The notes below the pieces were generated by a model that saw only the letters and a program-made list of their open reading frames with translations, made no database searches and was not told the origin of the DNA. From Halomonas sp. GFAJ-1 (GTDB taxonomy: Bacteria > Pseudomonadota > Gammaproteobacteria > Pseudomonadales > Halomonadaceae): a DNA stretch of 32,000 nt. Shown in pieces: positions 5,029-24,951 of the stretch. Location of the stretch: NCBI GenBank assembly GCA_002966495.1, contig CP016490.1, positions 2,590,454 through 2,622,453 of the forward strand, read 5' to 3'. The first letter of the stretch is position 1. Each line of letters opens with the position of its first letter. The position numbers and the translations under genes are program-made.

Positions 5029-5057
5029 ATGCGGCGTTATACGTTTCTGGAGATACA

Positions 5058-8194: not shown

Positions 8195-8962
8195 CCGCTT
8201 TTGGCCGGACAACGACGGCTAAGGATAGGCCGTCGTTTATCCATATCAAACCTCTGTCTGTTCTGCCATTTCCAACGCATCATCTACCTCTATCCCTAGA
8301 TATCTAACGGTGCTTTCCAGCTTCGTGTGACCCAAGAGCAGCTGCACTGCCCTTAAGTTTTTAGTGCGACGGTATATCAGCGACGCTTTGGTGCGGCGCA
8401 TCGTATGCGTGCCATAGATTGAAGCATCTAAACCTATTTCGGTGACCCAGGCTTTCACGATACGGGCATATTGGCGCGTGGACAGATGCTTTGCGCTATT
8501 GATTCGGCTGGGAAACAAGAAGTCCTCGCTCCTGAGCTGAGCAAGCTGTATCCAGTCGATAATAGCGATCCGAGTTTGCTCGGTAATTTCGAACTGGACA
8601 GGTCGATGCGTTTTTTGCTGCATCACGATGGCTCGTGGGGATATGCACGCACCATGAGCAATATCTCGTACACGTAAATTGACGAGGTCGCAGCCTCGTA
8701 ATTTGCTATCGATGGCTAGGTTGAAGAGGGCAAGGTCTCTCGTCTTTTTGGCCAGCTGCAGGCGCACACGTATAGCCCAGATATCACGAAGGCGCAGAGG
8801 CGCCTTCTGCCCAACCAACTTGCCTTTATTCCAAGGTGTAAATGAGATTTCAGTCGGAACGTTCATGGCATGATCCTCCATCAGGTGGAGGTCAAAGAAT
8901 GGCTCAATTAACGCTCGTCATGTGCTAAGGTTAATTTACAGTCAGGGTTCGACCCAAAGCGG
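8195..8962 (-). mobile_element. recombinase module copy 2 (~770 bp direct repeat of 5424..6197)
   Basis: Same end motifs as copy 1: CCGCTTTTGGCCGG (8195-8208) and TCGACCCAAAGCGG (8949-8962). The encoded protein differs from copy 1 at only a handful of residues plus a 2-aa indel. Confidence 0.55.
8246..8866 (-). CDS. short tyrosine recombinase/integrase, second copy (~206 aa)
   Basis: Same R/HxxR/H/Y motifs as 5475..6101. Uses the same internal ATG with GAGGA upstream (the ORF track starts at 8881). Confidence 0.8.
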   Translation of the reverse strand: MNVPTEISFTPWNKGKLVGQKAPLRLRDIWAIRVRLQLAKKTRDLALFNLAIDSKLRGCDLVNLRVRDIAHGACISPRAIVMQQKTHRPVQFEITEQTRIAIIDWIQLAQLRSEDFLFPSRINSAKHLSTRQYARIVKAWVTEIGLDASIYGTHTMRRTKASLIYRRTKNLRAVQLLLGHTKLESTVRYLGIEVDDALEMAEQTEV

Positions 8963-9149
8963 CCCTCTCGGCAACTGGTTCAGTTGTGTTATGCAGCCTA
9001 TTCATATCCATTTGCATTTAATTTCAATGGAATAGAACATAAATGATAGGCGGCATAACCTAAATGAACGCTCCCCCGTGTTCATTTAGGTTATGTAGAG
9101 GGTGTATAAACACCGATACGTGGGTACCTGATAATCTCAGAGGGTAATT
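8948..9149 (+). repeat. repeated leader unit A (attI-like): core TCGACCCAAAGCGG, GTTATGCAGCC box, 16-bp perfect hairpin, RBS
   Basis: Aligns by eye with 9900..10130. Shared blocks are tcgacccaaagcggccc, gtgttatgcagcc, aatttcaatgg, ataacctRaatgaac/gttcattYaggttatgtagaggg and ggtaattWtatg. The hairpin spans 9054-9069 / 9080-9095. Confidence 0.6.
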
Positions 9150-9530
9150 ATGGCAAAGGTAGGAATAGTTCTCGTCACGGCCCTTTTTATCGCAGGCTGC
9201 GCTTCGCAGATCATGGAATCTTACGTTGGAAAAGACATTCGTGAAGCTGCCCTAGATTACGGCCCACCTTCAAATGCCATCGATATGGGTGATAACGAAA
9301 GAGCTTTTCAGTGGGTAATGAATTCAAGTTTCACAACCCCCGTTACTACCACCACTACAGGGAGCGTAACATCGTATGGTCCGGGCTCTTGGATTAATAC
9401 AAACACCACAGTAACAGGCGGGGAGACAGTCAATTCATCCTGCATCTACACGCTAATGGCTCGCTGGAATGAGCGCTCAGAAAGCTGGATTGTAACTGGT
9501 TTCAGAAAGCCTCGGTTTACCTGCGAATGA
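9150..9530 (+). CDS. putative lipoprotein (126 aa)
   Basis: Signal peptide with lipobox LFIAGC. Thr-rich mature part. GAGGG RBS present. Confidence 0.6.
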   Translation: MAKVGIVLVTALFIAGCASQIMESYVGKDIREAALDYGPPSNAIDMGDNERAFQWVMNSSFTTPVTTTTTGSVTSYGPGSWINTNTTVTGGETVNSSCIYTLMARWNERSESWIVTGFRKPRFTCE

Positions 9531-9899
9531 CCACTTAACAAGGCAATCAAATTCGTTCTGGCCTTTGGCTTCTACCGAGTGCCTTTATCAGAGCGCAGCT
9601 TATTGTTGCCGTATGTGCTACTAGAAACCGCAAAAGCAAAGATGAAAGAAAGCCACGCACAGTGGCTAGGCGCGCTAGGAGGCAAAGCAAGGTGTAAAGA
9701 AGAAACACAAAAAAATCTGCCAAATAACATGCAGTCTCAATGGTGTGTAGCGACTTGTGCGCATTGCACGCACGACCTAGCTTCACGATGCATGAATAAA
9801 CAATTCGCCTAGATCTCACCCTTTCGTTGAAAGCAGTGACAAATTTCAATTTCTTAATATGCCGAATGAAAGCTACGTTGAGGTGAATAGGGAGCTGTA

Positions 9900-10130
9900 A
9901 TCGACCCAAAGCGGCCCTTCCGGCGAAAGCTGCATGCTGATTCAGCCGTGTTATGCAGCCGGCACGATAATCTATGTTATGCTGCCTATTTATAATTAAT
10001 TTATTTTAATTTCAATGGGGTAGATCGTGAATGATGGGCTGTATAACCTGAATGAACTCGGCGGTGCGTTCATTCAGGTTATGTAGAGGGATGTATAATA
10101 ACTGTTGCGTGTCGGTAACGAGGTAATTTT
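9900..10130 (+). repeat. repeated leader unit B (second copy of the attI-like unit, no recombinase gene next to it)
   Basis: Core TCGACCCAAAGCGG at 9901-9914. Two direct boxes: GTTATGCAGCC (9950-9960) and GTTATGCTGCC (9976-9986). Hairpin at 10043-10057 / 10068-10082. Confidence 0.6.
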
Positions 10131-10694
10131 ATGGCCCTTTTGGCCGAAGAAATTGTTGAGGAATGGCTGAATAGGCAGGGTTACTTCACTATCCGTGGAA
10201 TCCGTCTTGGCGTCAACGAGATTGATTTGGTCGCCGTAAAGTTCAGATCAGGGGAAAGCCCAGTTTGTCGCCATGTTGAGGTACAGGCGTCAATGAGACC
10301 GGTAAGCTACATCTCCAAGGTGCCCAAAGCTGCACGAAAAACAGGCCGAGCTGCGAATAGCGCAGCACGTTCACAGGAAGAACTTGTTGAAGGTGTTGCC
10401 GAATGGGTGGAGGGAAAGTTCCATGCCACCAAGAAGCGCTCACTTATGGCAACTCTGTGGAGCGGGGAGTGGTCGTCGGAGCTGGTTATAAATAACGTCA
10501 AATCTGAGCAGGAAGTAGCGCTTATCGCAGAGCATGGAGTAATTATACACCGGCTTCCTAAGATTGTTCGGGAGCTTCAAGTCAATGATTTCCCAATCAA
10601 AAGTGCTGCTGGAACAGATTTTATAGACCTCTTGCAAATGGGGGCCAACACAAAACAAGATGCTCTACCGTACGCTCCTTCGTCACGCCGGTAA
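10131..10694 (+). CDS. hypothetical protein with PD-(D/E)xK-like (YraN/endonuclease-like) N-terminal region
   Basis: The pattern EEIVEEWLNRQGY...NEIDLVAV...RHVEVQAS resembles the E..GY..EIDL..VEVK signature, with Q in place of K. The stop lies inside the attC-like site. Confidence 0.55.
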   Translation: MALLAEEIVEEWLNRQGYFTIRGIRLGVNEIDLVAVKFRSGESPVCRHVEVQASMRPVSYISKVPKAARKTGRAANSAARSQEELVEGVAEWVEGKFHATKKRSLMATLWSGEWSSELVINNVKSEQEVALIAEHGVIIHRLPKIVRELQVNDFPIKSAAGTDFIDLLQMGANTKQDALPYAPSSRR

Positions 10695-10708
10695 GCTCTG
10701 CGTTATAA
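10650..10708 (+). repeat. attC-like recombination site (59 nt)
   Basis: Imperfect palindrome ACAAAAC-AA-GA[T]GCT[C]TACCG ... CGGTA-AGC-TC-TGC-GTTATAA. Paired AAC/GTT ends, with unpaired T and C on one arm. Confidence 0.6.
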
Positions 10709-10724
10709 GTCATTGAGGTTCTGA

Positions 10725-11393
10725 GTGAGTAATGAAATTCGGGCGATAATTCAGAAGGCTGAAGAAACGCTCCAAACTGCTAGGTTTGGCTACGAGGATC
10801 TCACGTCGAGAAATCGCTACCGGAGGTATTCGGGCATCCGAAACTTGGTCGTTTTTGGCCGTTCAGTGACTTTCGTAATTCAGAACCTTAAAACGCCTGT
10901 TGGTTCTGATCGGTTTGATGCTTGGTATCAACCGATACAGGAAAAAATGAAGTCTGATGTTCTGATGAAGTATTTCGTCACGCTGAGAAACGAAATACTC
11001 AAACAGGGAAAACTGCCGGTCAGCACATCTGCCTCAGTCAACTTCTCATCTTCTGACATGGTAAAGTTGGGAACACCTCCCCCAGGAGCCAGTGGATTTT
11101 TCATTGGAGATCAAACTGGCGGTAGTGGGTGGGAAATCGAATTGCCGGATGGGACAAAGGAAAAGTATTACGATGAACTCCCCGAAAGCATGGCTAAGGT
11201 TCAGCAGCACTTCAGCGAATTGCCGGTTCCAGATGATGACGATTTGAAGAAAAAGTCTATCGAGGAGCTTTGCGAATACTATCTTAAAGAACTTGAAGGG
11301 GTCCTAGACGAGGCTCGGAAAGTCTTCTTGGGTGAGGATACTCAAAGGGCCGGAGGGAAGAGGCTTCCTCCTTATTTGAGAGTAGTGAAATGA
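10725..11393 (+). CDS. hypothetical protein (222 aa), cassette-borne
   Basis: GTG start with GAGG 6 nt upstream. Flanked by the inverted pair GTTATAAGTCA (10702-10712) and TGACTTATAAC (11391-11401). Confidence 0.55.
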   Translation: MSNEIRAIIQKAEETLQTARFGYEDLTSRNRYRRYSGIRNLVVFGRSVTFVIQNLKTPVGSDRFDAWYQPIQEKMKSDVLMKYFVTLRNEILKQGKLPVSTSASVNFSSSDMVKLGTPPPGASGFFIGDQTGGSGWEIELPDGTKEKYYDELPESMAKVQQHFSELPVPDDDDLKKKSIEELCEYYLKELEGVLDEARKVFLGEDTQRAGGKRLPPYLRVVK

Positions 11394-11394
11394 C

Positions 11395-11478
11395 TTATAA
11401 CCAGTGCAGGCACGGCGACGCCCACTACATTGCGCCTTCGGCTCCATTCCGTGGGCGCGCATGCTGCAAGCGTTAGCC
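11395..11478 (+). repeat. attC-like recombination site (84 nt)
   Basis: TTATAAC...TGCAG...GCG[A]CGCCCAC - loop - GTGGGCGCGC...CTGCA...GTTAGCC. Arms pair with one extrahelical A. Ends with a GTTRRRY-like box. Confidence 0.7.
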
Positions 11479-11491
11479 TTTATGGAGAGTT

Positions 11492-12460
11492 ATGAGTAAG
11501 CCTTTAATTTACCTAGATCAAAATATCATCGGCTTGCAGTTGCAGGGCATTATCAACCTGAGTAAGCGAGATGATGTAACTTGGGTTTACTCAAAAGAGC
11601 ACTTTGCAGAGATTCTACGCTCTAATAAATCTGAGAAATATTTAGGTGTTCTCGATGCTATAGATGCAAAATTATTAGACCTTGTTCTTGACGATAACTG
11701 GAAAATTACTGGTGAAGCTAGGTTAATTGAGAACGGAACCCCATATGAACATTATGATAGCTACATTGAAGCAACCGGTGATGTAGATTTCGATGACTCC
11801 ATTTTCGACCCATTCCAGGTATGGGTTAACGGTGGTGGAGACGAAGGTCCATTAAAGGACCTCTCTGAAAAATTCGCACAGCAAATCTTAAGGCTCACTT
11901 CTGACTTGCCTTTTGATACTACAGAAATGACTGACCAAGTTAAGCAGATAAAGCCCGAATTTGATTCCATGATCGATGAGATGATATCAAATGGAAATGA
12001 TATCCATAAGACTAGGGCGGCTTTCGGAGATCAGAAAGGCTCCATCGGTAGTATATCAGGCGAGAAACAGATTGAGAAAATTTGGGAAATAATATCCCCA
12101 ACGATGCACGGGGCAGATATTAGTTGTGATCAATTTTTTGGCTTTGATCCCATCGATAAACAAGGTTGCGGCATTTGGCCAATTTATCTCGGAATAATTG
12201 GATGCAATTCGGTGCTTGATATATTAGGTTTTCAAGCAGAGAAAAAATGCAGAAAACTAAACAAAATTCATAACGTAAGAAGTGATGCTGGTCATATAGC
12301 GATGGGCGCATATTGCTCAGCAATCATGTCTGAGGATAAGCGTTTAGTTAAAAGAGCAAAAGCCATCTATGAATATAAGGAAATAGGAACTTCTCCTATT
12401 CTGGTCATACGAGAGGCTAACAAACCAATCCAGCCGACCGCTGACGCGTCGGCTGATTGA
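11492..12460 (+). CDS. hypothetical protein (322 aa), cassette-borne
   Basis: Clean ORF with GGAGAG upstream. The N-terminal IYLDQNII is loosely PIN-like (speculative). The stop lies inside the next attC-like site. Confidence 0.55.
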   Translation: MSKPLIYLDQNIIGLQLQGIINLSKRDDVTWVYSKEHFAEILRSNKSEKYLGVLDAIDAKLLDLVLDDNWKITGEARLIENGTPYEHYDSYIEATGDVDFDDSIFDPFQVWVNGGGDEGPLKDLSEKFAQQILRLTSDLPFDTTEMTDQVKQIKPEFDSMIDEMISNGNDIHKTRAAFGDQKGSIGSISGEKQIEKIWEIISPTMHGADISCDQFFGFDPIDKQGCGIWPIYLGIIGCNSVLDILGFQAEKKCRKLNKIHNVRSDAGHIAMGAYCSAIMSEDKRLVKRAKAIYEYKEIGTSPILVIREANKPIQPTADASAD

Positions 12461-12470
12461 AGCGTTCGTC
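12415..12470 (+). repeat. attC-like recombination site (56 nt)
   Basis: GGCTAAC-AAAC-CAATC[C]AGCCGAC - CGCTGACGC - GTCGGCT-GATTG-AAGC-GTTCGTC. Near-perfect arms with one extrahelical C. Confidence 0.7.
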
Positions 12471-12482
12471 AGCTTTGAGAGC

Positions 12483-13274
12483 GTGGTGTCAACGATGAGT
12501 GAAATTCCTGGATTTAGGGACGTGGGGCCACATGAGCCATTGTCCGTCGAGGCCACTTGGGACGAGTTCGTATCGATCTCAGGCGGGAAACGAATCTCGG
12601 ATGATCTCCCGAAATCTCCCGATTTTGATAACGCCGATTATCTGTTCGAGCAAGATGCTGTAGTACTTGAGTTGAAGGAAATCGAGACCGAGTTCCTACG
12701 TTCTAAATCTGCCAAGCGCGGGTTCGAGGATCTCTTAACGCGGCTTACTGCAGAAGATCCTTCATGGCGGCCGCTTTTGTTAGGAGGTGATGGACAATAT
12801 CCAGCGTGGTTTCATCAAGGGTTCGTTCGCCTTGCAAGGCCCGCCATTCTACGGGTACTCAAAAAGGCCAATAGGCAAATTCGGGAAACGAAAGAGAAGT
12901 TTCGGATCAACAGTCCCAACGGAGTGCTCATATTCGTCAATGATGGGTTCACTGGTTTGGCGCCAGGCCTCGTTCACGCTCTCGCCTGTGACGCATTGGT
13001 GCACTCCTATTCCTCAATTGATTGTTTCCTTTATGTCACCGTCAATCGCTATGTTGAGGTCACGCAGTCGAATGAGCCAAAGATAATTTGGAATCCGTCC
13101 TACAGTGATCGGGCGCCTAATGAACTCGTAACCTTTATCGACACCCTTGGGCGGCGCTGGTTCGATTTCTTAGAGAACAAAATCGGGCCGTACACGTCCC
13201 GCTATGAAGGCGGCGATCGGTCGATACTTCATGGCTCCAAGGCTATCGTCATCCCGGGTGAGGAAGACAGGTGA
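12483..13274 (+). CDS. hypothetical protein (263 aa), possible PD-(D/E)xK nuclease fold
   Basis: ORF with an alternative ATG at 12495. The stretch NADYLFEQDAVVLELKE fits D-x10-E-x-K; this reading is speculative. Confidence 0.5.
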   Translation: MVSTMSEIPGFRDVGPHEPLSVEATWDEFVSISGGKRISDDLPKSPDFDNADYLFEQDAVVLELKEIETEFLRSKSAKRGFEDLLTRLTAEDPSWRPLLLGGDGQYPAWFHQGFVRLARPAILRVLKKANRQIRETKEKFRINSPNGVLIFVNDGFTGLAPGLVHALACDALVHSYSSIDCFLYVTVNRYVEVTQSNEPKIIWNPSYSDRAPNELVTFIDTLGRRWFDFLENKIGPYTSRYEGGDRSILHGSKAIVIPGEEDR

Positions 13275-13294
13275 GCGGTCCTGCGCCGCCGAAC

Positions 13295-13365
13295 AACAAA
13301 CTGTACCTGACGTCTCCGCCTCCGCTGTGCTATGGCGGAGCCGCAGGTGAGCTTGAGCGTTAAAT
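13295..13365 (+). repeat. attC-like recombination site (71 nt)
   Basis: AACAAAC..ACCTG-ACGT-CTCCGCC - loop - GGCGGAG-CCGC-AGGT..GCGTTAAAT. The terminal GTTAAAT fits GTTRRRY exactly. Confidence 0.7.
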
Positions 13366-13403
13366 TCTATAAACCCACAGATCAGAAAGAGTTGGATATC
13401 CGT

Positions 13404-14429
13404 ATGAGCAAGGAGATACTGGAGGAGCAGCGAAGATTTTTCGAGTTTGTTAAGAGCTATGAACATATCAATGAAGAGGGCCGTCTTGACTTAGAAGCTT
13501 TCTGTGTAAACCTCTCAACGTGTTTCAATTGCGATGGGGTTCTCGATCAATCGCCTCAGCCCAGAGAAATCTTTGATTTGCTCATTGACATACTGGAAAC
13601 CAAAGCTACCGGGAAGGAGATGTCCTTATGGTTGCAGAGGCAAAACCTGATCGATTGGTCCCCCGAAGTTGCTCAGGTATATCCGGATGGCTATAGAACC
13701 TATATTCATGTAGCTGGCTTAATTCACGCAGCATACACGTGGATATATCACATTGGGCACTCCTTGATGGGGATCTCTGAGCCCGAATCGCCAAAAAAAT
13801 ATTTTGAATGGATCCCACGTGAATGGGTTTTCGTTCATGCGTTTATAAATGGATTTCACATCAAGTTTTCTGAGTTTCAAAAAGAAATCGATAGGAGCTC
13901 AGTCGGTGAAAGAGGGTATTCATTATTCGAGTCACTACACAAGTCGATATCTAACGACCTTTCCTTTGAAGAAGCGTCTCAGGAGATAAAGGAAAGAGAC
14001 GTAGCGCATCGCGAAACGATAAAAAGAATCGAGATAGCTATTGATTCAGGCTTTAATCTTGAGGCGATTACCTTGCAAGAGTGCTTGATTAGTAATTGCC
14101 TTTTCAATTACTTGGAAAGTCTTGGTATTAAGGCTAAAGGTTTTTCATTTCAAAAGCTCTTAAAAAAGAGTAAGGACTGCTTCAACGATAGTTCGGACCT
14201 GTTTAATGAGGTTGATTCTTGGAGAATTAAAAGGAATAACGCAATACATGGGTTCGTTGAGTCAACCTTAGGGTCATTTTCTGAATCTCAAGAAAAATTT
14301 GACCTCTTTGCCAGAGGGACCGCCTTGGAAGGTGATGCTCTCTCCAAAAGAGTTTGTGAGTGGTATCTTGAAGAGTCTGTAAACTTCATACCAGCCGAGT
14401 TTCCTAAAAGTGGAAGAAATCTCAATTAA
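13404..14429 (+). CDS. hypothetical protein with C-terminal HEPN-like R-x4-H motif (putative RNase)
   Basis: RNNAIH at 14232-14249 (WRIKRNNAIHGF). The ORF-track start at 13332 lies inside the attC-like site, so ATG 13404 (MSKEILEE) is preferred. Confidence 0.55.
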   Translation: MSKEILEEQRRFFEFVKSYEHINEEGRLDLEAFCVNLSTCFNCDGVLDQSPQPREIFDLLIDILETKATGKEMSLWLQRQNLIDWSPEVAQVYPDGYRTYIHVAGLIHAAYTWIYHIGHSLMGISEPESPKKYFEWIPREWVFVHAFINGFHIKFSEFQKEIDRSSVGERGYSLFESLHKSISNDLSFEEASQEIKERDVAHRETIKRIEIAIDSGFNLEAITLQECLISNCLFNYLESLGIKAKGFSFQKLLKKSKDCFNDSSDLFNEVDSWRIKRNNAIHGFVESTLGSFSESQEKFDLFARGTALEGDALSKRVCEWYLEESVNFIPAEFPKSGRNLN

Positions 14430-14435
14430 GGTGAT

Positions 14436-14494
14436 ATTTAACAAGTTACGGAAGGCGGACGCGTAAGATGTGCCCCTTCGTTTTGGCGTTATAT
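14436..14494 (+). repeat. attC-like recombination site (59 nt), last of the array
   Basis: ATTTAAC (exact RYYYAAC) -AAGTT-ACG-GAAGG-CGGAC ... GTGCCCCTTC-GT-TTTGGC-GTTATAT. Imperfect palindrome. Confidence 0.6.
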
Positions 14495-14767
14495 CAGGCA
14501 AAGCTGAAAGGCCGCTCCTGGCCGATAGTTGACGTTGAAAAGCTGTTTGTTGGTGCCAAAATCTAAAATTTGCTTGTTTTGAAAGAAGTAAGCACGTGTA
14601 GCGACCTATGAGCAGGTTAGAGAGAGTTTCGGCACACAGTTTGTATATTTCCTAGTAGTGTTCAAAAGCTGTAGGAACGAACAAGGAACGCTAGCGAGCT
14701 AAGCGGTAGATCAGAGAAATGTTTTCGCTGAGATGTGTAGTGAATTGTCCATGAGTAACGTCCATCA

Positions 14768-15289
14768 ATGAGAGCGCCGTTATCGCTACCCCAGCTATGG
14801 GAAAGCACCAAATACGTATCTTGGCCACAAAGCCACAGTAACCCCATTGTGCGTGTGCCGCGCCCATCGGGGAAACCCGAAACCAAGTCGATTTCCCGCT
14901 TAGCCAATGAGTACGACACCTTTGAGCGGTGCATTGCTTATCGAGACCAGCGGGGCAGAGAGGTTTGGGGCGCACGTCGTTGGAAAGAGCTGTTGTTAGT
15001 AGATGCACGCTCCGTCGCGCGTCATCGTGAAGAGCCGGCAGGCCCGATCACGGGCGTTTACCACTACGAACGCCCCACTGGAACAACACTCTGGGTTGCC
15101 GCCTGGTATGAGCTGATGCCCGACGGCTCACGCAAAAAACGCAGTGCGCAGTTCAGTTACGGTACGTCACGCACTCGCTATGCGACCTCAGAAGAGGCGA
15201 TGCAGGCGGCGATTAAACGGCGGCAAGAGGAAGAAGCACGCTGGTACTGTGTAGTGGGTCAACGTGATCAACGGCGCGTGAATCAATGA
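14768..15289 (+). CDS. AP2-like DNA-binding domain protein
   Basis: [14 protein letters not shown] followed by [29 protein letters not shown]...[12 protein letters not shown] resembles bacterial AP2/integrase-type DNA-binding proteins. The true start may be GTG 14849 or 14855. Confidence 0.55.
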
Positions 15290-15317
15290 TGTAAAATCCC
15301 ATCTTCAAGGAGTTCCA

Positions 15318-16541
15318 ATGGCTTTTCGCTTCCAGCGCCGCATTTCCCTTGCGCCCGGCGTGCGATTGAATATCAGCAAGCGTGGCGTGGGGCTCTCTGT
15401 CGGCCCACGCGGTGCGAGTGTGAGCATGGGGCCACGAGGTGCGCATGCACATGCCGGACTTCCTGGGACAGGGCTGGCCTATCGAACGAAGATTTCCCGT
15501 TCTTCCCAGGCCTCACGACAAAGGCAGTTGGGAACATCCTCGACCCATGCAACGCTGGAAGAGCGCATCAGGCAAGGCGAGTCGCTGGGGCTACGGCTAT
15601 CGGTTAATCAAGACGGCAACGTCCGCTACCTATTTGAAGATGGCTCCCCCCTCAACGACAAGGACGTGCGCTGGCTACGTCGCCATGCAAACGACGATAT
15701 CCGTGCACAGCTCAAAACACTCTGCGATGAATTAAACGCGGATATTATTCGCCTAGGCCGGCTGCACCTCGATACACTTTCCCCTCAATCCCGTGGCTAC
15801 GCACCACGCCATTTTGCTGAGCGTCCACCTAAACCGCCTAAGTCTGTGTCTCTTCCATGGTGGAAAGCGCTGTGGCCATCGGTACGCCGTCAACATGAGG
15901 CCGATAACGCACGTCATCAGGCCCAGTTTAATGATGACTACCGTGCCTGGGAGCATCGCAAAGCCGATTTTGAGGCTGCTGAGTTTGCTCGGCAGCAGCG
16001 CGAAGAGCAGGGCGTGTTCAGACAACGTGATGATATGACACTCACGCTTCAGGAACGCCTGGAGGAGATCGACTGGCCCCGGGAGACGGTGATTGACTTT
16101 GATCTAGGCAGCGACGACACCACGATAGCACTGGATATTGACCTGCCATCTGACGATGAGATGCCGGATCGAGAATGGACGATGCCTGCTAAGGCACTCA
16201 AGCTTACCCCAAAATCGCTCAGTGCCACACGACAACGGACGCTATACCGCGACCATGTGGATGGCATTACCTTTCGTGTTCTGGGGGCCGTATTTGTGCG
16301 GTTGCCGCACGTTCAAGAAGCGCGAGTGTCTGGGTATCGACAGGTCGTTGATCCCGCCACCGGCGGTACGCGGGATCAGTACCTTTACAGCATCAAGGTC
16401 ACCCGAGAACAGTGGAACCGTATTCACTTCGATCAGTTGGAACAGGTCGACCCGGTGGCGGCAGTAGAAGCGTTTACGCTGCGTCGTGACATGACCAAAA
16501 CAGGCATTTTTCGAGATATTGAGCCGTTTAAGCTCATCTAA
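15318..16541 (+). CDS. DUF4236-like protein (407 aa)
   Basis: The N-terminus [41 protein letters not shown] is the DUF4236 signature. GGAG lies upstream of the ATG. Confidence 0.65.
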
Positions 16542-16762
16542 TTTCTAGCTTAGGCATAAGCCCAAGGCTTTTGTGTTGTTTGACCAGGTGTGCTCATTCG
16601 ATGGTAGTGACAACGGTTAGGCGTGAGCGGCGCTGACATTACAGCCTTTGATCATTGAGAAGGCGCGATGAGCTTTATAGGCCAATATTTTTTAGAAAAA
16701 TTTATGCTTTATGGTGGATAGCTGCTATACGTTTGATAAGGATATCTTAGCAGGTGGTTGCC

Positions 16763-18001
16763 ATGAAATTGCTTGTCCGCCCAAGACCGTTCATTAACGA
16801 GTCACTTGAGAGCTACATGCTCCGTCTATCGCAAGAAAATTTCTTCGAATACTATCAGCAGCTTAGTCGAGCGATAAAAGACTGGCTGCAACTGCATGAT
16901 CATGAAGCGGCAGGGGCGTTCCCAGAAGAGTTGAGCCGTTTGAATGTTTATCACGCGGCTCAGAGTAGTAGTCGACGCATCAGGGCGCTCAAGCTAGTGG
17001 AGTCGCTAACAGATAATGAAAAACTTCCGCTACTGCACTTGGCAGTCATGCATTCCAGCGAGAAATTTTGTTCACGCTACAGTAGCGTGTTTTATGCAGG
17101 TAGCCATGTACCCCGAGCGTTAGTTCGCCAAAAGGGGATACCTGTCTGCCCTGATTGCCTCACTGAAGCCAACTACATTCGGCAAGAATGGCACTGGATG
17201 CCCTACGAAGCTTGTATTAATCATGGCAAACAGATGTTACATGAGTGTCCAAAATGCGAAGAGAAATTAAATTACACCCATTCTGAATGTTTGCATACTT
17301 GCCGCTGCGGATTTGATCTTCGAAATGCTGACACGGAGCCAGCAGACGAATGGCAGCTTATCGCTAGCCGCCTCGTAGTAGGTGAGCCTTCGCCTTCAAA
17401 CCACCCTCTACTCGACATCCGTTCAGTCAGTTTGCGCCTAGCATGTCTGTTGTGGTACCAGCTGTATGCATATAAAACGTTAGATGCTAGTAATCAGGTT
17501 CCCACTCTTACGATTGAGCGGGCTATCGAGTATTTCACGCATTGGCCTGAAGTGTTTACACAGGAACTAGAGCAGCAAGCGGCGCTTTCAGGCGAGAAAT
17601 TAGTATGTGATTATAATAAAACCTCATTTCGTGATGTTTTTGGCAACATTGTCGGCATTTCGCGTCTGCTGTTGAAGGCTTATCCAGAAAGCGATTTCGT
17701 CTTGACGCCATTGGAGAATTTTTTAGCACGATTGGTTGATCAGAATCCGCAATCACGTGTGCCAAACGTCGCAGATCTGCTCATCAGTATGCCGGAAGCC
17801 GCGATTTTGCTTGGCACGTCGTATGAGCAAGCATACCGTCTATATGAAGAAGGGTATCTCAAATGCGCGGTCAAATTTAAATCACATGAAAAGCTAGTGA
17901 ACGGTATAGGAGTATTTTACTTAAGAGAAATCATGGAGTTGCGTCAGTCACGAATACCGGTTGAGGCAAGCAGCTATAATAATTATTTACCAGCGTGGTA
18001 A
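16763..18001 (+). CDS. tniQ: TniQ family transposition/targeting protein
   Basis: N-terminal PRPFINESLESYMLRLSQEN. Cys clusters CPDC and CPKC..C.C form a likely zinc ribbon. AGGTGG lies 5 nt upstream of ATG 16763. The stop is 4 nt before the next gene. Confidence 0.8.
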   Translation: MKLLVRPRPFINESLESYMLRLSQENFFEYYQQLSRAIKDWLQLHDHEAAGAFPEELSRLNVYHAAQSSSRRIRALKLVESLTDNEKLPLLHLAVMHSSEKFCSRYSSVFYAGSHVPRALVRQKGIPVCPDCLTEANYIRQEWHWMPYEACINHGKQMLHECPKCEEKLNYTHSECLHTCRCGFDLRNADTEPADEWQLIASRLVVGEPSPSNHPLLDIRSVSLRLACLLWYQLYAYKTLDASNQVPTLTIERAIEYFTHWPEVFTQELEQQAALSGEKLVCDYNKTSFRDVFGNIVGISRLLLKAYPESDFVLTPLENFLARLVDQNPQSRVPNVADLLISMPEAAILLGTSYEQAYRLYEEGYLKCAVKFKSHEKLVNGIGVFYLREIMELRQSRIPVEASSYNNYLPAW

Positions 18002-18005
18002 CGTC

Positions 18006-20066
18006 ATGTCGTTAAGTACGTTGTTGGAATTGGATGAGCCAAACCGCTCAGAAGCAATTCGTAAAGCTTTCGCTCCCTACACGCAGCCGCTAGAGGTTTC
18101 TGAAGATGTTAACGCTGCTATTCTGGTGTTGCTTAACTTATCGCATAAGCGTCAAGACGCTCCCGATTTGTTGAATAAAAAAAGAGCAATTGAAACACTC
18201 AAAGATTGGCAGTATATCGAAAGTTGTGCTCAAGAAGTACAGTGGCTGCACTCACATAATCTAAAGCATCCTGATACACGTGTCGCACATCAGAGATTGT
18301 TAGTAAAAGCTGAGAAGCCCTCGGACAGTATTGTTTCTTCATATAATAGCGTGAGTCGTTTGGGCTGGTCACACAACTCAGCAGCTGTGAATAAAGCAAA
18401 GCTTTTTGGAGCTAATTTTATATTTAAGGGTGTAGTTTACTGTTTGGCCGCTATTTTTTTAGATAATAACAAGCAATGGCGGAAAGAATTCATGAATCTT
18501 GGTATGTCTGATGGTCAATGGACTTACCTTCAGTCGCTTTTTGATAATTATTTCACTAAAAATTTATCACCCTCTTATGTGGAAAGGCATTCGGTGCAAG
18601 TTACCTTTCTTTATCAAGGAAAGGATGTCAGTATTACACCTGTCACATCACATTCATTACTGGCCGACATTCAAATTGCTCGGCGTAATAAATGTGGAGA
18701 TTTTGCAACAATAAAACATTGGCACTCTTCAAGTGTTGGAGATTTAGCATCCTCGCTTGGAGGTAATATCTCTGCTCTTAGTTATCCCCCTCGACTATTA
18801 GCCTGTAGCCAAAATAAAGAAAATGAAAATTCTTCTGGAGTCTTTTTTGTAGACTTCCATCACAGTTCTTTAAGAAGCAAATCGTTTATCCTGGCATGTA
18901 CTGAAATTGTTGAAAGTAAAAGCTTGTTGACCGGAAAGAAGAGGCGAGATCATAGGCGTTCTGCTATTAAGTTGCTGAGGCAGTCTTTATCTGAATGGCT
19001 ATCCCCAGTTAGCTATTGGCGAAATGTAGGAGGAGAAGCGCTTTCAGAACGGCAGAACAATTCAGCATGCCTTTTGATTTCTGCTCCTGACGAGGATTTA
19101 CTTGAAATCCTACCTGAGATTAATAAAGAATTACACAGTATTTTGGTGAGGTATCCCCAAACGCAAAGCTTTGCTTATCATCCAGAGCTATTAATTCCTT
19201 TCAAGGCTCAGCTTAAGTCCTTATTGATTGGGATGAAAATAAAAGAAGACGAAGCTATGGCTGAAGAGCCATATTATTACCTTCACTTAAAAAACCTACA
19301 TGTATTCGATGCACAGGCGTTATCTTGTCCCTATCTAGTGGGTTTGCCTTCACTGCTGGCAGTATGGGGAACCGTCTATAACTACCAGCTACGTTTACGA
19401 AGCATCCTTAAACGGAACATTGCCTTTGAAGGAGTTGCTTGGTTTTTGCGGCAGTATGAGTCCTCCTCGGGTGCCAAGATACCTGCCCCGTATCTGGCAC
19501 CAACGAAGCCAGGTGAGGCTCCCAAGCGGCCAGGTCTTATTGATATGCGCTTTTGCGATTTACGCATGGATTTAGTTATTCGCTATCGACTAGAGGATGG
19601 GCACGATACCCCGCTTGGAAATGACGAATTGCCTATGCTGCAGTCTGCACTCCCCGGGAGGTTCGCTGGGGGGACTATGCAGCCTCCGCCACTTTATGAA
19701 GCCTTACAGTGGTGCCAACTACATGGAGATGCGAACAGTTTATTGGCAGCCATATCGCTTCTGCCGGACGAGGGTCGTTGGGTTGTCGACTCAGAAAAAC
19801 AGGTGCAAAGCATCGACAGCTTGGTGGCATGGTTGTCCAAGCATCCCCATCATTTACCTGCTATGAGTGGCTATCAGTTGTTTGAAGAACCTTGCTATCG
19901 GTCTGGTTCACACAGGGAGCTCCATGCTTATGCTGAGCCTTTGGTAGGTCTAACAGAGACGTTGTCACCGGCAAGCGTCAGGCTCAATGGTAAAGCTGAC
20001 TTTCTTAAAAACGCTTTTTGGAGGTTGAAAAGCCAGAACCTTACTATGCTGATGAAAAAAGCATAG
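18006..20066 (+). CDS. cas8: Cas8f/Cas5f-fusion-like large Cascade subunit (type I-F3 'Cas8')
   Basis: Its 686-aa size and its position between tniQ and cas7 match I-F3 CAST operons. I could not verify an independent motif by eye. Confidence 0.7.
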   Translation: MSLSTLLELDEPNRSEAIRKAFAPYTQPLEVSEDVNAAILVLLNLSHKRQDAPDLLNKKRAIETLKDWQYIESCAQEVQWLHSHNLKHPDTRVAHQRLLVKAEKPSDSIVSSYNSVSRLGWSHNSAAVNKAKLFGANFIFKGVVYCLAAIFLDNNKQWRKEFMNLGMSDGQWTYLQSLFDNYFTKNLSPSYVERHSVQVTFLYQGKDVSITPVTSHSLLADIQIARRNKCGDFATIKHWHSSSVGDLASSLGGNISALSYPPRLLACSQNKENENSSGVFFVDFHHSSLRSKSFILACTEIVESKSLLTGKKRRDHRRSAIKLLRQSLSEWLSPVSYWRNVGGEALSERQNNSACLLISAPDEDLLEILPEINKELHSILVRYPQTQSFAYHPELLIPFKAQLKSLLIGMKIKEDEAMAEEPYYYLHLKNLHVFDAQALSCPYLVGLPSLLAVWGTVYNYQLRLRSILKRNIAFEGVAWFLRQYESSSGAKIPAPYLAPTKPGEAPKRPGLIDMRFCDLRMDLVIRYRLEDGHDTPLGNDELPMLQSALPGRFAGGTMQPPPLYEALQWCQLHGDANSLLAAISLLPDEGRWVVDSEKQVQSIDSLVAWLSKHPHHLPAMSGYQLFEEPCYRSGSHRELHAYAEPLVGLTETLSPASVRLNGKADFLKNAFWRLKSQNLTMLMKKA

Positions 20067-20076
20067 GCAGGTCGGC

Positions 20077-21126
20077 ATGATGAACTCTTTCAGGCATCTT
20101 AGCTATGAGCGCTCTCTCAATCCGGGTAAGGCGGTTTTTTATTACCGGACAGATTCGAGCGAATTTGAGCCGTTGCAAGCGGAAGTGACGCGGTTTCGTG
20201 GCCCCAAGGCAACGTTTAGCGATGGCTATATGGCATCCGGGACTGCGCGTGCTAAAGAAACGAGCGATTTGGGCTTTTCTAATCCTATAATGCTCGAAAC
20301 GTGTTATGTACCACCGCTAGTCGATACGTTGTATTGTCGTTTTTCTTTACGCATCATTGCAAACAGCTTAGAGCCAAATATCTGTGATAATGCAGAAGCG
20401 ACAAAAGCATTAAAAGAATTCTCTGATACTTATAGAAACTTGGGCGGATACCAAGAGCTAGCAACTCGATATGCTAAAAATATTCTTTCAGCTGAATGGC
20501 TTTGGAAAAATAAAGTTGCAAGAGGGATAGCTGTGGAGGTTTCTACGTCTAATTTAAAAAACTATTGTATTAAAGATGCACAGTATAAAGAGTGGGGATC
20601 CTCTTGGGAAGGAGATGAGCTTAAATCATTAGAAGGGCTTGCAGTTGAGTTTGAAGAGGCACTTTCTTGCCCACAAAAATTTCTTTTTGCTGATGTAGCT
20701 GCCAAAATAAAAACAGAATTTTGCCAAGAAATTTTCCCCAGTCAATTATTTGTTGAGAAAGATGATAGAGGCAACGGAAGTGCGTCTAGGCAGTTTATGA
20801 AAAGCACGATGAACGATGGTCGTCAAGCAGTTAGCTTTGGTGCTTATAAAGTCGGAGCAGCAATTCAAAAAATTGATGACTGGTGGCTAGATGAAGGGGC
20901 TGAATACCCTTTGAGAGTGAGTGAATACGGTGCAGATCGTAGTCGGGTTTTAGCTATGCGTGAACCAGTTACGAAGAAAGATTTTTACTCGCTGTTAAAC
21001 GAAATTACAAATATCACGGAGGAAATGATTAAAACCAGGCAGGCCAGCCCTAATGCACACTACGTGATGTCAGTGCTAGTGAAGGGGGGGATGTTCCAAA
21101 AAGGAATAAAGAAGGGTGAAAAATGA
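20077..21126 (+). CDS. cas7: Cas7f-like Cascade backbone subunit
   Basis: Blocks LSYERSL, ELATRYAKNILSAEWLWKNK, GAYKVGAAIQKIDDWW, KDFYSLL and VKGGMFQKG match what I recall of I-F/I-F3 Cas7. Confidence 0.8.
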   Translation: MMNSFRHLSYERSLNPGKAVFYYRTDSSEFEPLQAEVTRFRGPKATFSDGYMASGTARAKETSDLGFSNPIMLETCYVPPLVDTLYCRFSLRIIANSLEPNICDNAEATKALKEFSDTYRNLGGYQELATRYAKNILSAEWLWKNKVARGIAVEVSTSNLKNYCIKDAQYKEWGSSWEGDELKSLEGLAVEFEEALSCPQKFLFADVAAKIKTEFCQEIFPSQLFVEKDDRGNGSASRQFMKSTMNDGRQAVSFGAYKVGAAIQKIDDWWLDEGAEYPLRVSEYGADRSRVLAMREPVTKKDFYSLLNEITNITEEMIKTRQASPNAHYVMSVLVKGGMFQKGIKKGEK

Positions 21127-21731
21127 GATACTTTTTTTGCATAAAATATCTAATGCCTTCAGGCAATCACGCATTTTTAGCAGGGAGGTGTATTGCTTGC
21201 TTACATGGGTTTATAAGCGGCCCTAAAATAACGAATTCCGGCATTGGTGTTTCGTTTCCATCATGGGCTACGGGCACAGTTGGTGATTCAATCGCTTTCG
21301 TGAGTAAAGATATTAATGCTTTGTCTTATTTATCATCAGCGCGCTGTTTTAAGAATATGGCGGACGAAGGGTTTATTGACGTTAGTGATATTAAAATGGT
21401 TCCAGAGAAATTAGAAGAAGTTAGGTTTATTAGAAATCAGCATATTGCTAAATCTTTTCCGGGAGAAATTAAGAGACGGCTCATCCGCAGCAAAAACCGG
21501 GCTGAAAAACGTGGCGAGACGTTCATGCCTAGCAGTGCCGTATCAGATCGCTTCGTTGATCAATGCCACGTAATTCCAATTGATAGCCGATCGTCAGGCC
21601 AGCGCTTCCCACTGTATGTGCAGCTTGAAGCACTTGGCGAAGAAAGCAAGTATAATAACTACAATAGTTACGGGCTTGCTACACAGTATACATACTCGGG
21701 TTCGGTGCCAAACCTTAAGCAGATTACCTAA
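21123..21731 (+). CDS. cas6: Cas6f-like crRNA endoribonuclease
   Basis: ATGA overlap with the cas7 stop. Blocks GIGVSFPSW, basic RRLIRSKNRAEKRGE and C-terminal SYGL. The leader and array follow. Confidence 0.75.
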   Translation: MRYFFCIKYLMPSGNHAFLAGRCIACLHGFISGPKITNSGIGVSFPSWATGTVGDSIAFVSKDINALSYLSSARCFKNMADEGFIDVSDIKMVPEKLEEVRFIRNQHIAKSFPGEIKRRLIRSKNRAEKRGETFMPSSAVSDRFVDQCHVIPIDSRSSGQRFPLYVQLEALGEESKYNNYNSYGLATQYTYSGSVPNLKQIT

Positions 21732-21854
21732 ATATTTTCAGAATATATATTATTATACTTATCAATTACTTGCCTGAATTACGCTAAAAAGTGTGTTTTT
21801 ATCATTTTGTACTTATCTCGTTGATGTCTATATTTAAACTGCTAGCTAGGTCTA

Positions 21855-22002
21855 GTGAACCGCCGAATAGGCAGCTGAAAAAAGCACGTAGAGGAAGCAA
21901 GGGCAGAGGTGCCCGTGAACCGCCGAATAGGCAGCTGAAAAATGATTGAACGGTGCGCATATGCATCTGAGTGCGTGAACCGCCGAATAGGCAGCTGATA
22001 TT
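21855..22002 (+). CRISPR. CRISPR array: three 28-nt I-F-like repeats, two 32-nt spacers
   Basis: Repeats GTGAACCGCCGAATAGGCAGCTGAAAAA at 21855 and 21915, and a variant ...GCTGATATT at 21975. This matches the canonical I-F repeat GTTCACTGCCGTATAGGCAGCTAAGAAA at 22/28 positions. Spacers are at 21883-21914 and 21943-21974. An AT-rich leader spans 21732-21854. A possible degenerate fourth repeat lies at 22031-22057. Confidence 0.9.
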
Positions 22003-22060
22003 AGGACTGGAAGCCAGCAACGGTAATGATACACACCGCCGCAAGGCAGCAATGGTTCTA

Positions 22061-22092
22061 AACCCTCCAAGATTTCTTGGAGGGTTTTTTTT
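22061..22092 (+). terminator. rho-independent terminator after the array
   Basis: AACCCTCCAAG-attt-CTTGGAGGGTT followed by T8. Confidence 0.7.
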
Positions 22093-22269: not shown

Positions 22270-22809
22270 ATGAATCAGATGACAGCTCGGCAGCGACTGG
22301 ATGATTGGGATAAAATCGGGAGAAATATATTTACACTGAGTGACTTAGCAAAGATCTTTCATGAAGATAAACCAAAAACCCTTCAGGAAGGAATCAACCG
22401 ATTGCGTAAGCACGGGATACTCGAAGGCGTTACCCGAGGTATCTATTGCTATGCTCATTCGCGCACTCCCGACACCTATCGGCTGGAGAAAATCGCTCGT
22501 GCTATGCGCCGTGGCGAGTACAGCTACGTGTCACTGGAGTCCGCCCTTTCAGAGTATGGGGCCATCTCACAAATCCCGGTCGATCGTCTAACAATTATGA
22601 CAACGGGACGCAAAGGAACGCACCGCACCCCTTATGGAACTATTGAGTTCACTCATACGAGTAGACGCATCATTGAGCTGCTGCCGCGCATGCTTGATAT
22701 TGGGCGGCCGCTCAAGATGGCGACCCTTGATGCTGCCTGGGCAGATCTCAAACGTGTGGGGCGAAATACGTATTTAGTAGATGTAGAGGTGATTCATGGT
22801 CAGGGGTGA
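22270..22809 (+). CDS. AbiEi-like antitoxin/transcriptional regulator (wHTH N-terminal domain)
   Basis: TLSDLAKIF...LQEGINRLRKHGILEGVTRGIYCY followed by YVSLESALSEYG resembles AbiEi family antitoxins. Confidence 0.6.
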   Translation: MNQMTARQRLDDWDKIGRNIFTLSDLAKIFHEDKPKTLQEGINRLRKHGILEGVTRGIYCYAHSRTPDTYRLEKIARAMRRGEYSYVSLESALSEYGAISQIPVDRLTIMTTGRKGTHRTPYGTIEFTHTSRRIIELLPRMLDIGRPLKMATLDAAWADLKRVGRNTYLVDVEVIHGQG

Positions 22810-23160: not shown

Positions 23161-23311
23161 GTTTTTTTATAACGTCATTTTGCTACCGAAGCAAACGATC
23201 GTTTTACTTTATGTCATTTAAAAGTGGAAAACTTATGTCATTTTGCGGTGGAATTCTTGGTGTAAGTGACTGTTTTTTCGTATTGGTTATGTCAAGTTGA
23301 AGTGGAAACGA
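23161..23311 (+). mobile_element. Tn7-like transposon end (tnsA-proximal) with terminal TGT and four direct TnsB-type repeats
   Basis: TGTTTTTTTAT terminus at 23161. Repeats are ACGTCATTTTGCTACCGAAG (23173), ATGTCATTTAAAAGTGGAAAAC (23212), ATGTCATTTTGCGGTGGAATTC (23236) and ATGTCAAGTTGAAGTGGAAACG (23290). tnsA begins 97 bp further in. Confidence 0.7.
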
Positions 23312-23407
23312 CAATTTCTTGTCGTTTTCAATACTAGTTGGCATAATTCTCAAATAACTGGCATGAGCTACCTTTTATATAATTAAACTACATAAAAGGG
23401 TGGAGCC

Positions 23408-24027
23408 ATGTACCGCCGCAAGCTCCGTCACTCCCGCGTCAAAAATCTCTATGAGTTCGCTAGTGCCAAGAACGGCAATGTCCTAACCGTCGAATCGACT
23501 TTGGAATTCGATGCCTGCTTTCACTTTGAATATTCGAATGATATTCAGTCTTTTGAAGCCCAGCCTATAGGGTTTCACTACAACTACGAAGCCAAAACCC
23601 TCCCCTATACCCCAGATTTTCGTTTAATTAATGTGTCAGGCGTTGCTACTTTCGTCGAAATCAAGCCTGCTAGCTTTTTTTAAAACCTGAAATTATGCAA
23701 CGTTTTGCCGCTAAAAGAGATGCTGCTAAAAGTCAAGGTTTCAACTTGATACTAGTGTCTGACCGCCAAATACATGTAAACCCACTTTTGTATAACCTAA
23801 AGTTACTGCATAGATATTCAGGCTTATCGCTAATCAATGATTTCCATCACTCTATTTTGAAGATAATAGAGAAATTTCGAAAAGTAAAAGTGGGTTATTT
23901 GTTAGAAAGAATATCAGCTGAAGAGGGCTCGATAATGCGTGCGATTATAAGCCTCCTTCAGTTACGCTTGGTTAAAGCAAATTTTACCATTGAAAAAATT
24001 GGCAGAAATACAACTATATGGTGCTGA
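23408..24027 (+). pseudogene. tnsA: tnsA (Tn7-type endonuclease) split by a frameshift in a T7 run
   Basis: The N-terminal fragment carries TnsA catalytic-type motifs (STLEFD, YTPDF, VEIKP). The C-terminal fragment is in another frame. Adding one T at 23675-23681 fuses them (..ASFFLKPEIMQRF..). No tnsB follows. Confidence 0.7.
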
Positions 24028-24030
24028 TGA

Positions 24031-24951
24031 CTTCGTAAAGTGTCATGGTTGCAGTCACCTCGCCAAGATGAGCTCATTGTTCGCATAGAAACTAGCCGTC
24101 TATTGAGTGAAATAGATATTCGACTAATCGAGCTTTTTTGTTGAATATTGCGGTAGGCTTCGATAATGCTCAGTTGTTTGAGAAAACAGAGTTCCTTGCT
24201 TACCATGATCCTTTAACATGTTTACCTAATCGGCGATCTCTGCTTGAAACAATGGAGCGTTTGATTAAACGTGACACGGCTTTTTCAGTCTTAATAATAG
24301 ATATTGATAATTTTCAGTCTATCAACGATGGCTTAGGTTATCGGATAGGTGATGCGTTACTTAAAAAGGTAGCCGCCTTGTTTCGACATCACTTTGACTC
24401 AGCGGTGCTACTGTCGAGAGCAGCAAAAATGGCTGAAGGCGACGGGCAATGCGTTGACCGTTGCTGTGAATGTGTCGGTTCGCCAGCTTTCTGGGTCGCA
24501 CTTTCTTACCACGGTAGATAATGTGCTGCGAACAACAGGTATCAGTCCCCAGCATTTAGAGTTAGAAATCACAGAAAGCATGATGATAGAAGATGCCCAG
24601 CATATCCATCAGCTGATTGCACAGATCCGCACCCGAGGTATTAAAGTAGCGTTGGATGACTTTGGGACAGGCTACTCATCATTAAGCTCTTTGCAGCAGC
24701 TACCCATAGATAAATTGAAAATTGATCGCTCGTTTGTCTTCGGTGTGGATAGTAAAGAAGAAGATCGCTTGCTCGTCGAAATGATTATTAACCTAGGCAA
24801 ACTGTTGGGCTATACCGTTATTGCGGAAGGTGTTGAAACAATTGAACAACAGCATGTTTTACAGTCTCTAGGGTGCGATATGGTGCAAGGCTATTACTAC
24901 TCTCGGCCTTTAGGAGGCGATGCGTGGCAGGCGTATTTGCTTGCGCATTAG
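24031..24951 (+). pseudogene. decayed GAF?-GGDEF-EAL signalling gene (N-terminally truncated, frameshifted, internal deletion)
   Basis: The GGDEF start is present (AYHDPLTCLPNRR..IIDIDNFQSINDGLGYRIGD) but the GGDEF motif itself is missing. The sequence jumps into mid-EAL (VAVNVSVRQL, ELEITES, DDFGTGYSS, KIDRSF, EGVE). There is a frameshift at the T6 run 24134-24139. Confidence 0.7.

Follow-up and report, generated by a model that had tools for sequence, protein, structure and literature searches.

Among the CRISPR-associated transposons (CASTs) of type I-F3 described so far, the closest to the locus considered here is Tn7474, a 38,808-bp element of strain BH1 whose attachment (att) site is ffs; it integrates in E. 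coli at targets with CN protospacer-adjacent motifs (PAMs) (Roberts et al., NAR 2022, PMC9723613), and it was among ten systems chosen for confident prediction of all essential elements, tnsA, tnsB and tnsC included (PMC9723613). Solved structures exist for two further relatives, the TniQ-Cascade of A. salmonicida (7U5D; PMC12774636) and the PseCAST complex (9GS9; PMC12375015), and elements of the I-F3b branch follow a simple rule, namely that the att-specific spacer is always the last of the array and has an "atypical" repeat on either side (Petassi et al., bioRxiv 10.1101/2020.07.02.184150). Against this background we examined a stretch of 32,000 nucleotides from Halomonas sp. GFAJ-1 (contig CP016490.1, positions 2,590,454 to 2,622,453), referred to below as the window, in which an operon led by tniQ and followed by a CRISPR array had been taken, from the letters alone, for the targeting module of an I-F3 CAST that uses TniQ-Cascade (the original prediction). 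Our analysis bears this identification out, by full-length matches to CAST structures, a Tn7-type left end, a spacer homing to ffs and, in Tn7474, a relative that has been tested. We read the region as the targeting module plus the left-end portion of a type I-F3b CAST that homes to ffs and is inserted between ffs and a decayed older element, and give this a probability of roughly 0.87.

All coordinates are in window numbering, and the open reading frames (ORFs) of the window were scanned against Pfam, NCBIfam and PADLOC. The loci used for comparison come from Vreelandella titanicae (L001), Halomonas sp. CH40 (L002), V. titanicae BH1 (L003), H. alkaliantarctica (L007) and H. citrativorans (L011), from a Shewanella CAST (L012), from two sequences that extend the window leftward (L005 and L009) and from a set of metagenome contigs (L013-L021). 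In all encoded proteins that were compared, the window is identical to a Logan contig of run SRR4046668, and one of its proteins is 100% identical to a protein recorded for Halomonas sp. GFAJ-1. The targeting module and the left end consist of the following parts.

16670-16762, + strand: promoter and 5' region of the tniQ-cas operon, containing the palindrome ATAGCTGCTAT and AGGTGG
16763-18001, + strand: tniQ, 412 aa from its ATG; Pfam TniQ 2.8e-10
18006-20066, + strand: cas8/cas5 fusion, 686 aa; Csy2 (Cas5f) domain at residues 441-590, 2e-6 (Pfam)
20077-21126, + strand: cas7f, 349 aa (348 from the second ATG); Pfam Csy3 5.9e-57; TIGR02566 equivalog 204 bits, cut-off 157.55
21123-21731, + strand: cas6f, 202 aa; Pfam Csy4 2e-22; TIGR02563 equivalog 78.6 bits, cut-off 36.25
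21732-21854, + strand: AT-rich CRISPR leader, 26% G+C versus 48% window-wide; conserved with V. titanicae (L001), CH40 and BH1
21855-22002, + strand: the array's typical part, in which R1 and R2 read GTGAACCGCCGAATAGGCAGCTGAAAAA and R3 has the 3' handle GATATT instead of GAAAAA
22003-22034, + strand: homing (self-targeting) spacer AGGACTGGAAGCCAGCAACGGTAATGATACAC, directed at ffs and last in the array
about 22031-22062, + strand: atypical terminal repeat; hairpin CCGCC-GCAA-GGCAG, 4 nt closer to the spacer and with a 4-nt loop
22060-22087, + strand: terminator-like hairpin closing the array transcript; 12-bp stem, then a T-run; conserved in V. titanicae (L001), CH40 and BH1
23161-23313, + strand: transposon left end, with three TnsB-type sites and the terminus ...GGAAACGACA (reverse complement TGTCGTTTCC)
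23314-23319, no strand: junction ATTTC+T, a presumed 5-bp target-site duplication plus one base of an older duplication

All four genes of the operon are intact and in the same orientation. The 415-aa frame in which the original prediction had seen a TniQ protein (412 aa from an ATG preceded by an AGGTGG ribosome-binding site) does contain a TniQ domain and matches TniQ of solved CAST complexes from end to end, the alignment with the TniQ chain of 7U5D being full length (E 1.2e-108). The identities proposed for the roughly 686-aa Cas8/5-like gene, cas7 and cas6 are likewise supported by profile and structure-chain matches: residues 2-685 of Cas8/5 align full length with both 7U5D Cas8/5 (E 6e-127) and 9GS9 Cas8 (E 7.8e-134), and Cas8 and Cas5 form a single fused protein here, as is characteristic of CASTs. 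Tight packing of the genes had also been claimed, and this holds except at one boundary: the four are co-oriented, tniQ is separated from cas8 by 4 nt and cas7 overlaps cas6 by ATGA, but the gap between cas8 and cas7 is 10 nt rather than 4. The ORFs scanned across the 32-kb window yielded neither a Cas1 nor a Cas2-3 domain, in keeping with the reported absence of these genes between tniQ and the array. An exact-protein look-up with the 415-aa TniQ and the 349-aa Cas7 gave no match; the recorded gene calls use other starts.

In a large protein database the proteins closest to this TniQ are those of V. titanicae (93% identity), H. alkaliantarctica (84%) and Halomonas sp. CH40 (80%), all three encoded in the same tniQ-cas8/5-cas7-cas6 context, and the proteins of the module as a whole are 80-93% identical to Halomonas/Vreelandella CAST proteins. 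In CH40 an ISL3-family insertion sequence (L002 8711-9967) separates the first ~38 codons, still present upstream of it, from the rest of tniQ, so that the CAST of that strain is inactivated. The E-values obtained against 7U5D are some 75-100 orders of magnitude better than those against V. cholerae Tn6677 (TniQ 2.5e-33, Cas8/5 5.5e-28), and this strong match to the one and weak match to the other places the locus in the I-F3b branch.

The ~90 nt before tniQ are nearly invariant among the window, V. titanicae (L001) and H. alkaliantarctica, and the sequence farther upstream is unrelated. A ~100-aa Xre regulator (C.Csp231I-like) with a binding motif upstream of tniQ is a trait of the I-F3b branch, and by analogy to I-F3b elements (bioRxiv 10.1101/2020.07.02.184150) positions 16670-16762 may contain such a regulator-binding site. 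The window holds no xre gene, the expected position of which is beside tnsC.

Behind cas6 the sequence runs, as had been noted, into an AT-rich leader and then into I-F-like 28-nt repeats with 32-nt spacers. The repeats start at 21855, 21915 and 21975, i.e. with a period of 60 nt, and the array comprises three spacers, S1 (21883-21914), S2 (21943-21974) and the homing spacer (22003-22034); Rfam assigned no CRISPR-repeat family at gathering score anywhere in the window. The homing spacer is identical in V. titanicae (L001) and BH1 and has one difference in CH40. It is common to four Halomonas/Vreelandella elements, with the same atypical repeats flanking it, while the other spacers all differ. 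Its upstream flank is a repeat with an altered handle and its downstream flank a strongly diverged repeat, and a degenerate terminal repeat is likewise present in V. titanicae (L001), CH40 and BH1. The locus follows the I-F3b rule for the att-specific spacer, in a single array downstream of cas6.

The target of this spacer can be seen in H. citrativorans (L011), where Rfam RF00169 identifies the signal recognition particle (SRP) RNA gene ffs at 70 bits. The spacer aligns there to the 3' half of ffs, the protospacer being AGGCCCGGAAGGGAGCAACGGTAGTGGTGGCT, which begins AGGCCCGGAAGG and comes right after a CC PAM. Matches are found at 22 of the 32 positions, all of them within the first 28 nt, and four of the ten mismatches fall at every-sixth positions; the functional ffs guide of A. 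salmonicida also has 10 mismatches (bioRxiv 10.1101/2020.07.02.184150). When one genome per species was scanned with the homing spacer, only the BH1 array was hit and no perfect target emerged, which is to be expected of a mismatched guide.

One may consider an altogether different explanation, in which this is an ordinary type I-F immune locus with its cas1 and cas2-3 elsewhere and with an unrelated TniQ-family gene next to it by chance; after all, Cas7f and Cas6f match general I-F families, and the repeats resemble those of I-F systems. We consider this extremely improbable, because tniQ lies in the operon itself, 4 nt from cas8, and the fused Cas8/5 matches CAST Cascade structures end to end, because an array of three spacers only is followed by a Tn7-type end, and because a last spacer aimed at a host gene would be lethal for an interference system.

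That Tn7-type end lies 1.25 kb past the array, its first TnsB-type site ~1.1 kb past it. The three sites (23209-23232, 23233-23256 and 23287-23310) have the motif TTATGTCA-N8-GTGGAA, and the last runs into the terminus. CH40, BH1 and H. alkaliantarctica have the same end structure, and DNA homology to the window ceases at 23317-23327; the shared structure and the stop in homology together define 23313 as the left end, whose terminus, seen from the outside, reads TGTCGTTTCC. Tn7-type ends are marked by a TGT terminus, an 8-bp terminal inverted repeat and several TnsB-binding repeats; in this copy the left end shows the terminus and three repeats, and the cognate type of right end is seen in metagenome contigs. 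The last 10 nt (8-10 nt) of the left end are also the right-end terminus of intact elements that are linked to ffs and carry tnsA and tnsB.

The bases that flank this end also bear on where the element sits. ATTTC lies between ffs and Tn7-type right ends in H. citrativorans and in the contigs L019 and L021; for the copy in the window only the left-end flank is available. Had a typical guide brought the CAST to some other site, the spacer against ffs would be no more than an inherited homing guide, and one could then understand both why ffs is absent from the window and why the genes beyond the left end differ among the window, V. titanicae (L001) and BH1. However, both the flank ATTTC(T) and the abutting older relic are what directly adjoins ffs on its 3' side in H. 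citrativorans and in contig L013, and S1 and S2 have no match within the window (they are in no repeat family), which makes this scenario very unlikely.

A scan of metagenome contigs for the 3' end of ffs followed by this terminus yielded nine contigs. In seven of these the right end starts TGTCGTTTCC, the exact inverse of the left-end terminus of the window, and carries TGACATAA-type repeats; the four of the seven that reach far enough (L014, L018, L019 and L021) encode an intact 207-aa TnsA (Pfam 8.8e-12), followed by the start of TnsB with an rve domain. Matching right ends with tnsA and tnsB imply that the family to which our left end belongs is a complete ffs-linked Tn7-like transposon. 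In eight contigs with a Halomonas-type ffs (L011 9863-9935; L013-L021 junctions) the distance from the protospacer (32 bp) to the TGT of the right end that follows it is 40, 41 or 42 bp, and in L016, where the terminus is similar but ffs is not the same, it is 50 bp; the published I-F3 insertion distance is about 48-49 bp (bioRxiv 10.1101/2020.07.02.184150 for ~48 bp). Since the 5-base left-end flanks of the spacer-bearing CASTs, ATTTC in the window, TTTCT in BH1 and ATTTA in CH40, are those same right-end flanks, the CASTs themselves sit 40-42 bp from the protospacer.

From the genes observed, the operon would be expected to make a nuclease-free TniQ-Cascade, and Cas6 would cut the short array transcript into three guide RNAs. 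The last guide, from between the atypical repeats, would pair imperfectly with the 3' half of ffs beside its CC PAM, the match itself being observed, whereupon TniQ-Cascade would recruit TnsC together with TnsA/TnsB and the element would insert right-end-first just past ffs. The two leader-proximal guides, which have typical repeats, may instead direct hops into other mobile DNA.

Several observations weigh against our reading of the region as an ffs-homing I-F3b CAST. The repeat stem CCGCC/GGCAG contains a C-A mismatch and folds weakly (3 bp, -4.8 kcal/mol, z -1.2), the usual I-F stem being CUGCC/GGCAG; this mismatch is kept across the Halomonas clade, in all typical repeats and in CH40 and BH1 too. 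For S1 and S2, whose guides would serve the hops into mobile DNA, searches of plasmid and phage collections gave no significant target and a single chance-level match (E 0.7). The native distance of 40-42 bp in this clade departs from the published ~49 bp. Rfam finds no ffs gene in the window, so that the attachment site has to be deduced from the spacer, the flank and the relatives; judged by these sequences, the copy in the window presumably sits at ffs. Finally, the element's own tnsA, tnsB, tnsC, xre and right end were found neither in the window nor in the ~17 kb farther left, where only defence cargo was encountered. The cognate tnsABC and the right end presumably lie beyond the left edge of the window, more than 17 kb away, and the element would then be complete.

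The same absence could mean that the element, although its targeting module and left end are intact, can no longer move, tnsABC or the right end having been lost or broken, in which case we would be looking at a stranded remnant or at an element that depends on a transposase in trans. Decay is indeed common at the site, as the frameshifted tnsA relic in the window and the right-end-only relics in H. alkaliantarctica, L017 and L020 attest, and in CH40 it is tniQ that has been cut by the ISL3 element; nor was tnsABC reached in the window plus ~17 kb leftward. On the other hand, all four genes are full length when compared with their solved homologs, and conservation with the clade to which the active Tn7474 belongs extends to promoter, array, homing unit and left-end sites. 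Immobility is therefore unlikely in our view, and an ffs-homing CAST with its remaining parts farther left is the reading that we retain.

The short insertion distance could have its origin in the guide. Between Cas6 cuts the homing unit measures 55 nt versus 60, the terminal hairpin begins 1 nt after spacer position 32 versus 5 nt, and the loop is one base shorter; a stem loop shifted in a similar way, and with its loop shortened to 4 nt, has been described for Tn7475 (PMC9723613). One may speculate, tentatively and from these sequence comparisons, that the shortened homing guide RNA (55 nt, shifted hairpin, first 28 nt matching) might pull TniQ and the insertion ~8-9 bp closer, i.e. to 40-42 bp versus ~49 bp, and that tandem relics with different TnsB sites, giving no target immunity, might then accumulate at ffs. 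We think it more probable that this idea is wrong than that it is right. If it were true, the geometry of the 3' handle of the guide RNA, and not the proteins alone, would set the integration ruler of I-F CASTs. The well-replicated native distance of 40-42 bp, coupled to the 55-nt atypical guide, is one of the two more useful outcomes of this analysis, and Tn7474 constructs exist for a direct test.

The older element that our CAST abuts is represented by a single feature.

23320-24027, + strand: relic of an older related Tn7-like element, outside the CAST; right end TGTCGTTTTCAATACTAGTTGGCATAA... and a frameshifted tnsA, with no tnsB after it

The terminus of the relic, TGTCGTTTTCAATACTAGTTGGCATAA..., faces the opposite way, six bases (ATTTCT) beyond the CAST left end. 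Its tnsA occupies one frame at 23408-23683 and another at 23695-24027, and is full length in extent, with a frameshift near 23680: the first 91 codons match the TnsA N-terminal domain, and the second frame corresponds to residues 92-207 of a 207-aa TnsA (E 2e-19). The tnsA at 23408-24027 is thus a pseudogene of a different, older element and not the cognate gene of the CAST. A conserved family of "mini-TnsA" proteins, to which a word-index search with the tnsA fragment had seemed to point by giving only proteins of at most 144 aa, was rejected as an artefact of that search combined with the frameshift; the homologs retrieved by an exhaustive HMMER search are TnsA proteins of the ordinary kind, 204-217 aa long, and the relic gene continues into its second half in another frame. 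Next to the relic come a 5'-truncated, frameshifted GGDEF-EAL gene and then the chromosomal genes of a Mn/Zn ATP-binding cassette (ABC) transporter with their regulator. The GGDEF-EAL gene (24138-24951), now in two overlapping frames, has lost the sensor part at its 5' end, and is probably the trace of the deletion by which the remainder of the relic element disappeared.

The relic is 93.7% identical over 415 bp to the metagenome contig L013, where it lies directly beside ffs sequence, and H. citrativorans has a related one next to its ffs. The same layout, i.e. a left end, 5-6 bp and the right end of a relic, recurs in H. alkaliantarctica (L007 15651-15664) and in the Shewanella CAST (L012 ~9826-9845). 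The simplest reading of this is serial use of one attachment site, in which each new insertion, made at the fixed distance from the protospacer, lands between ffs and the earlier occupant. The repeats of the relic (…TGGCATAA) are unlike those of the CAST (…TGACATAA), and this difference in TnsB-type repeats may be the reason why the relic conferred no target immunity.

Three metagenome contigs (L013, L014 and L018) have an island that separates the Tn7-type right end from a complete ffs, and that right end abuts a 3' ffs repeat which starts CGGTAGTGG, inside the CAST protospacer. The island of L014 (2641-10236) is ~7.5 kb long and ends with a 425-aa tyrosine integrase (DUF6538 and Phage_integrase domains). 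It appears that the 3' end of ffs also serves a second kind of integrative element, which separates the CAST from the PAM-proximal half of its target. The other of the two more useful outcomes is that the ffs site gives a clear natural record of serial occupation, by an intact CAST, by older relics with different ends and by a tyrosine-integrase island.

The rest of the element, as far as the window contains it, is cargo.

1-16762, + strand: cargo, with the 3' part of pglZ (to 1422), brxL (1495-3567), two recombinase modules and a DUF4236 protein (15318-16541)
5475-6116 and 8246-8881, - strand: two small tyrosine recombinases of 213 and 211 aa, 96% identical to each other
22270-22809, + strand: AbiEi-family antitoxin gene, cargo between the array and the left end; NCBIfam NF047376 equivalog 228.8 bits, cut-off 150

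Given a left end at 23313, everything leftward in the window, including the bacteriophage exclusion (BREX) genes, is cargo. The original prediction had said as much of everything upstream, and no Tn7-type right-end terminus was found in the stretch 1-16762 that would contradict it. Many of the cargo ORFs in this stretch are without a family match. In the opposite direction, the AbiEi gene is not followed by an AbiEii toxin gene, there being no ORF of at least 80 aa up to the left end and one very short ORF that overlaps its stop codon. The interval from array to left end also contains antitoxin-like genes in CH40 and in the Shewanella CAST.

The two recombinase modules (5415-6217 and 8186-8982) are each followed by a conserved boundary, TCGACCCAAAGCGG; boundaries lie at 6184, 8949 and 9901. 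A ~116-nt repeat is present in two places and contains a palindrome with 15-bp arms (ATAACCTAAATGAAC...GTTCATTTAGGTTAT), the hairpins lying at 9054-9094 and 10043-10083, just upstream of unrelated ORFs without a family match. This layout of recombinases, boundaries and palindromes looks like a cassette-type arrangement inside the cargo. One of the recombinase modules is 88-90% identical to cargo DNA of the V. titanicae CAST (L001 791-1601).

In the 10 kb upstream of brxL (L005) there are a full pglZ and genes for a kinase, PDDEXK, GmrSD, DUF7017 and NERD/UvrD-helicase proteins; L009, a 96%-related metagenome contig that was reached via a 96%-identical helicase, adds two dynamin-like GTPases and a large ORF. 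The BREX system is interrupted between its upstream genes and pglZ (L005 1-9928, L009 1-7491), the interrupting genes being those for the NERD/UvrD helicase, a DUF7017/S1CSD-TOTE protein, GmrSD, a PDDEXK_4 nuclease, the kinase and the two dynamin-like GTPases. BREX genes interrupted in this way indicate a composite defence island carried as cargo. As the window and the ~17 kb to its left contain cargo without a transposase, the element must be at least ~40 kb long.

How does this element compare with those already described? A literature search found no paper naming GFAJ-1 together with Tn7. The clade as such is already published and functionally tested, and the present element is one more natural I-F3b CAST, with a large defence cargo; its value, for comparison or as a source of parts for genome engineering, is modest. 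The prototype of the I-F3a branch, V. cholerae Tn6677, shares with it tniQ, cas8/5, cas7 and cas6, a short array close to a Tn7-type left end and the lack of cas1 and cas2-3; yet it is far more distant in sequence, its att site is guaC, and its homing spacer is in a separate, non-contiguous array (bioRxiv 10.1101/2020.07.02.184150). The CAST of A. salmonicida S44 (Tn6900; Petassi et al. 2020) is closer, being likewise an I-F3b element with ffs as its att site and a terminal atypical guide with ~10 mismatches, but it belongs to another genus and host order, and the Halomonas clade inserts at 40-42 bp versus the ~48 bp reported for I-F3 generally.

The nearest comparison remains Tn7474, which, to judge by the strain name BH1, is presumably the locus L003 itself. 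Gene order, ffs homing spacer, the pair of atypical repeats, leader, terminator and left-end architecture are the same in both, the homing spacers being identical, and identity to the BH1 locus amounts to 80% for Cas8/5, 90% for Cas7 and 82% for Cas6. In contrast, the typical repeat in the window has A instead of C at position 12 and differs in its last base as well, and there are three spacers here, whereas the part of the BH1 array that was read has at least five ahead of its homing spacer, none of them shared. The cargo here consists of BREX and recombinase modules, the copy is at least ~40 kb long versus 38.8 kb, and it adjoins a relic element. Thus, the element departs from Tn7474 in 10-20% of its protein sequence, in the spacers other than the homing one and in what it carries as cargo.

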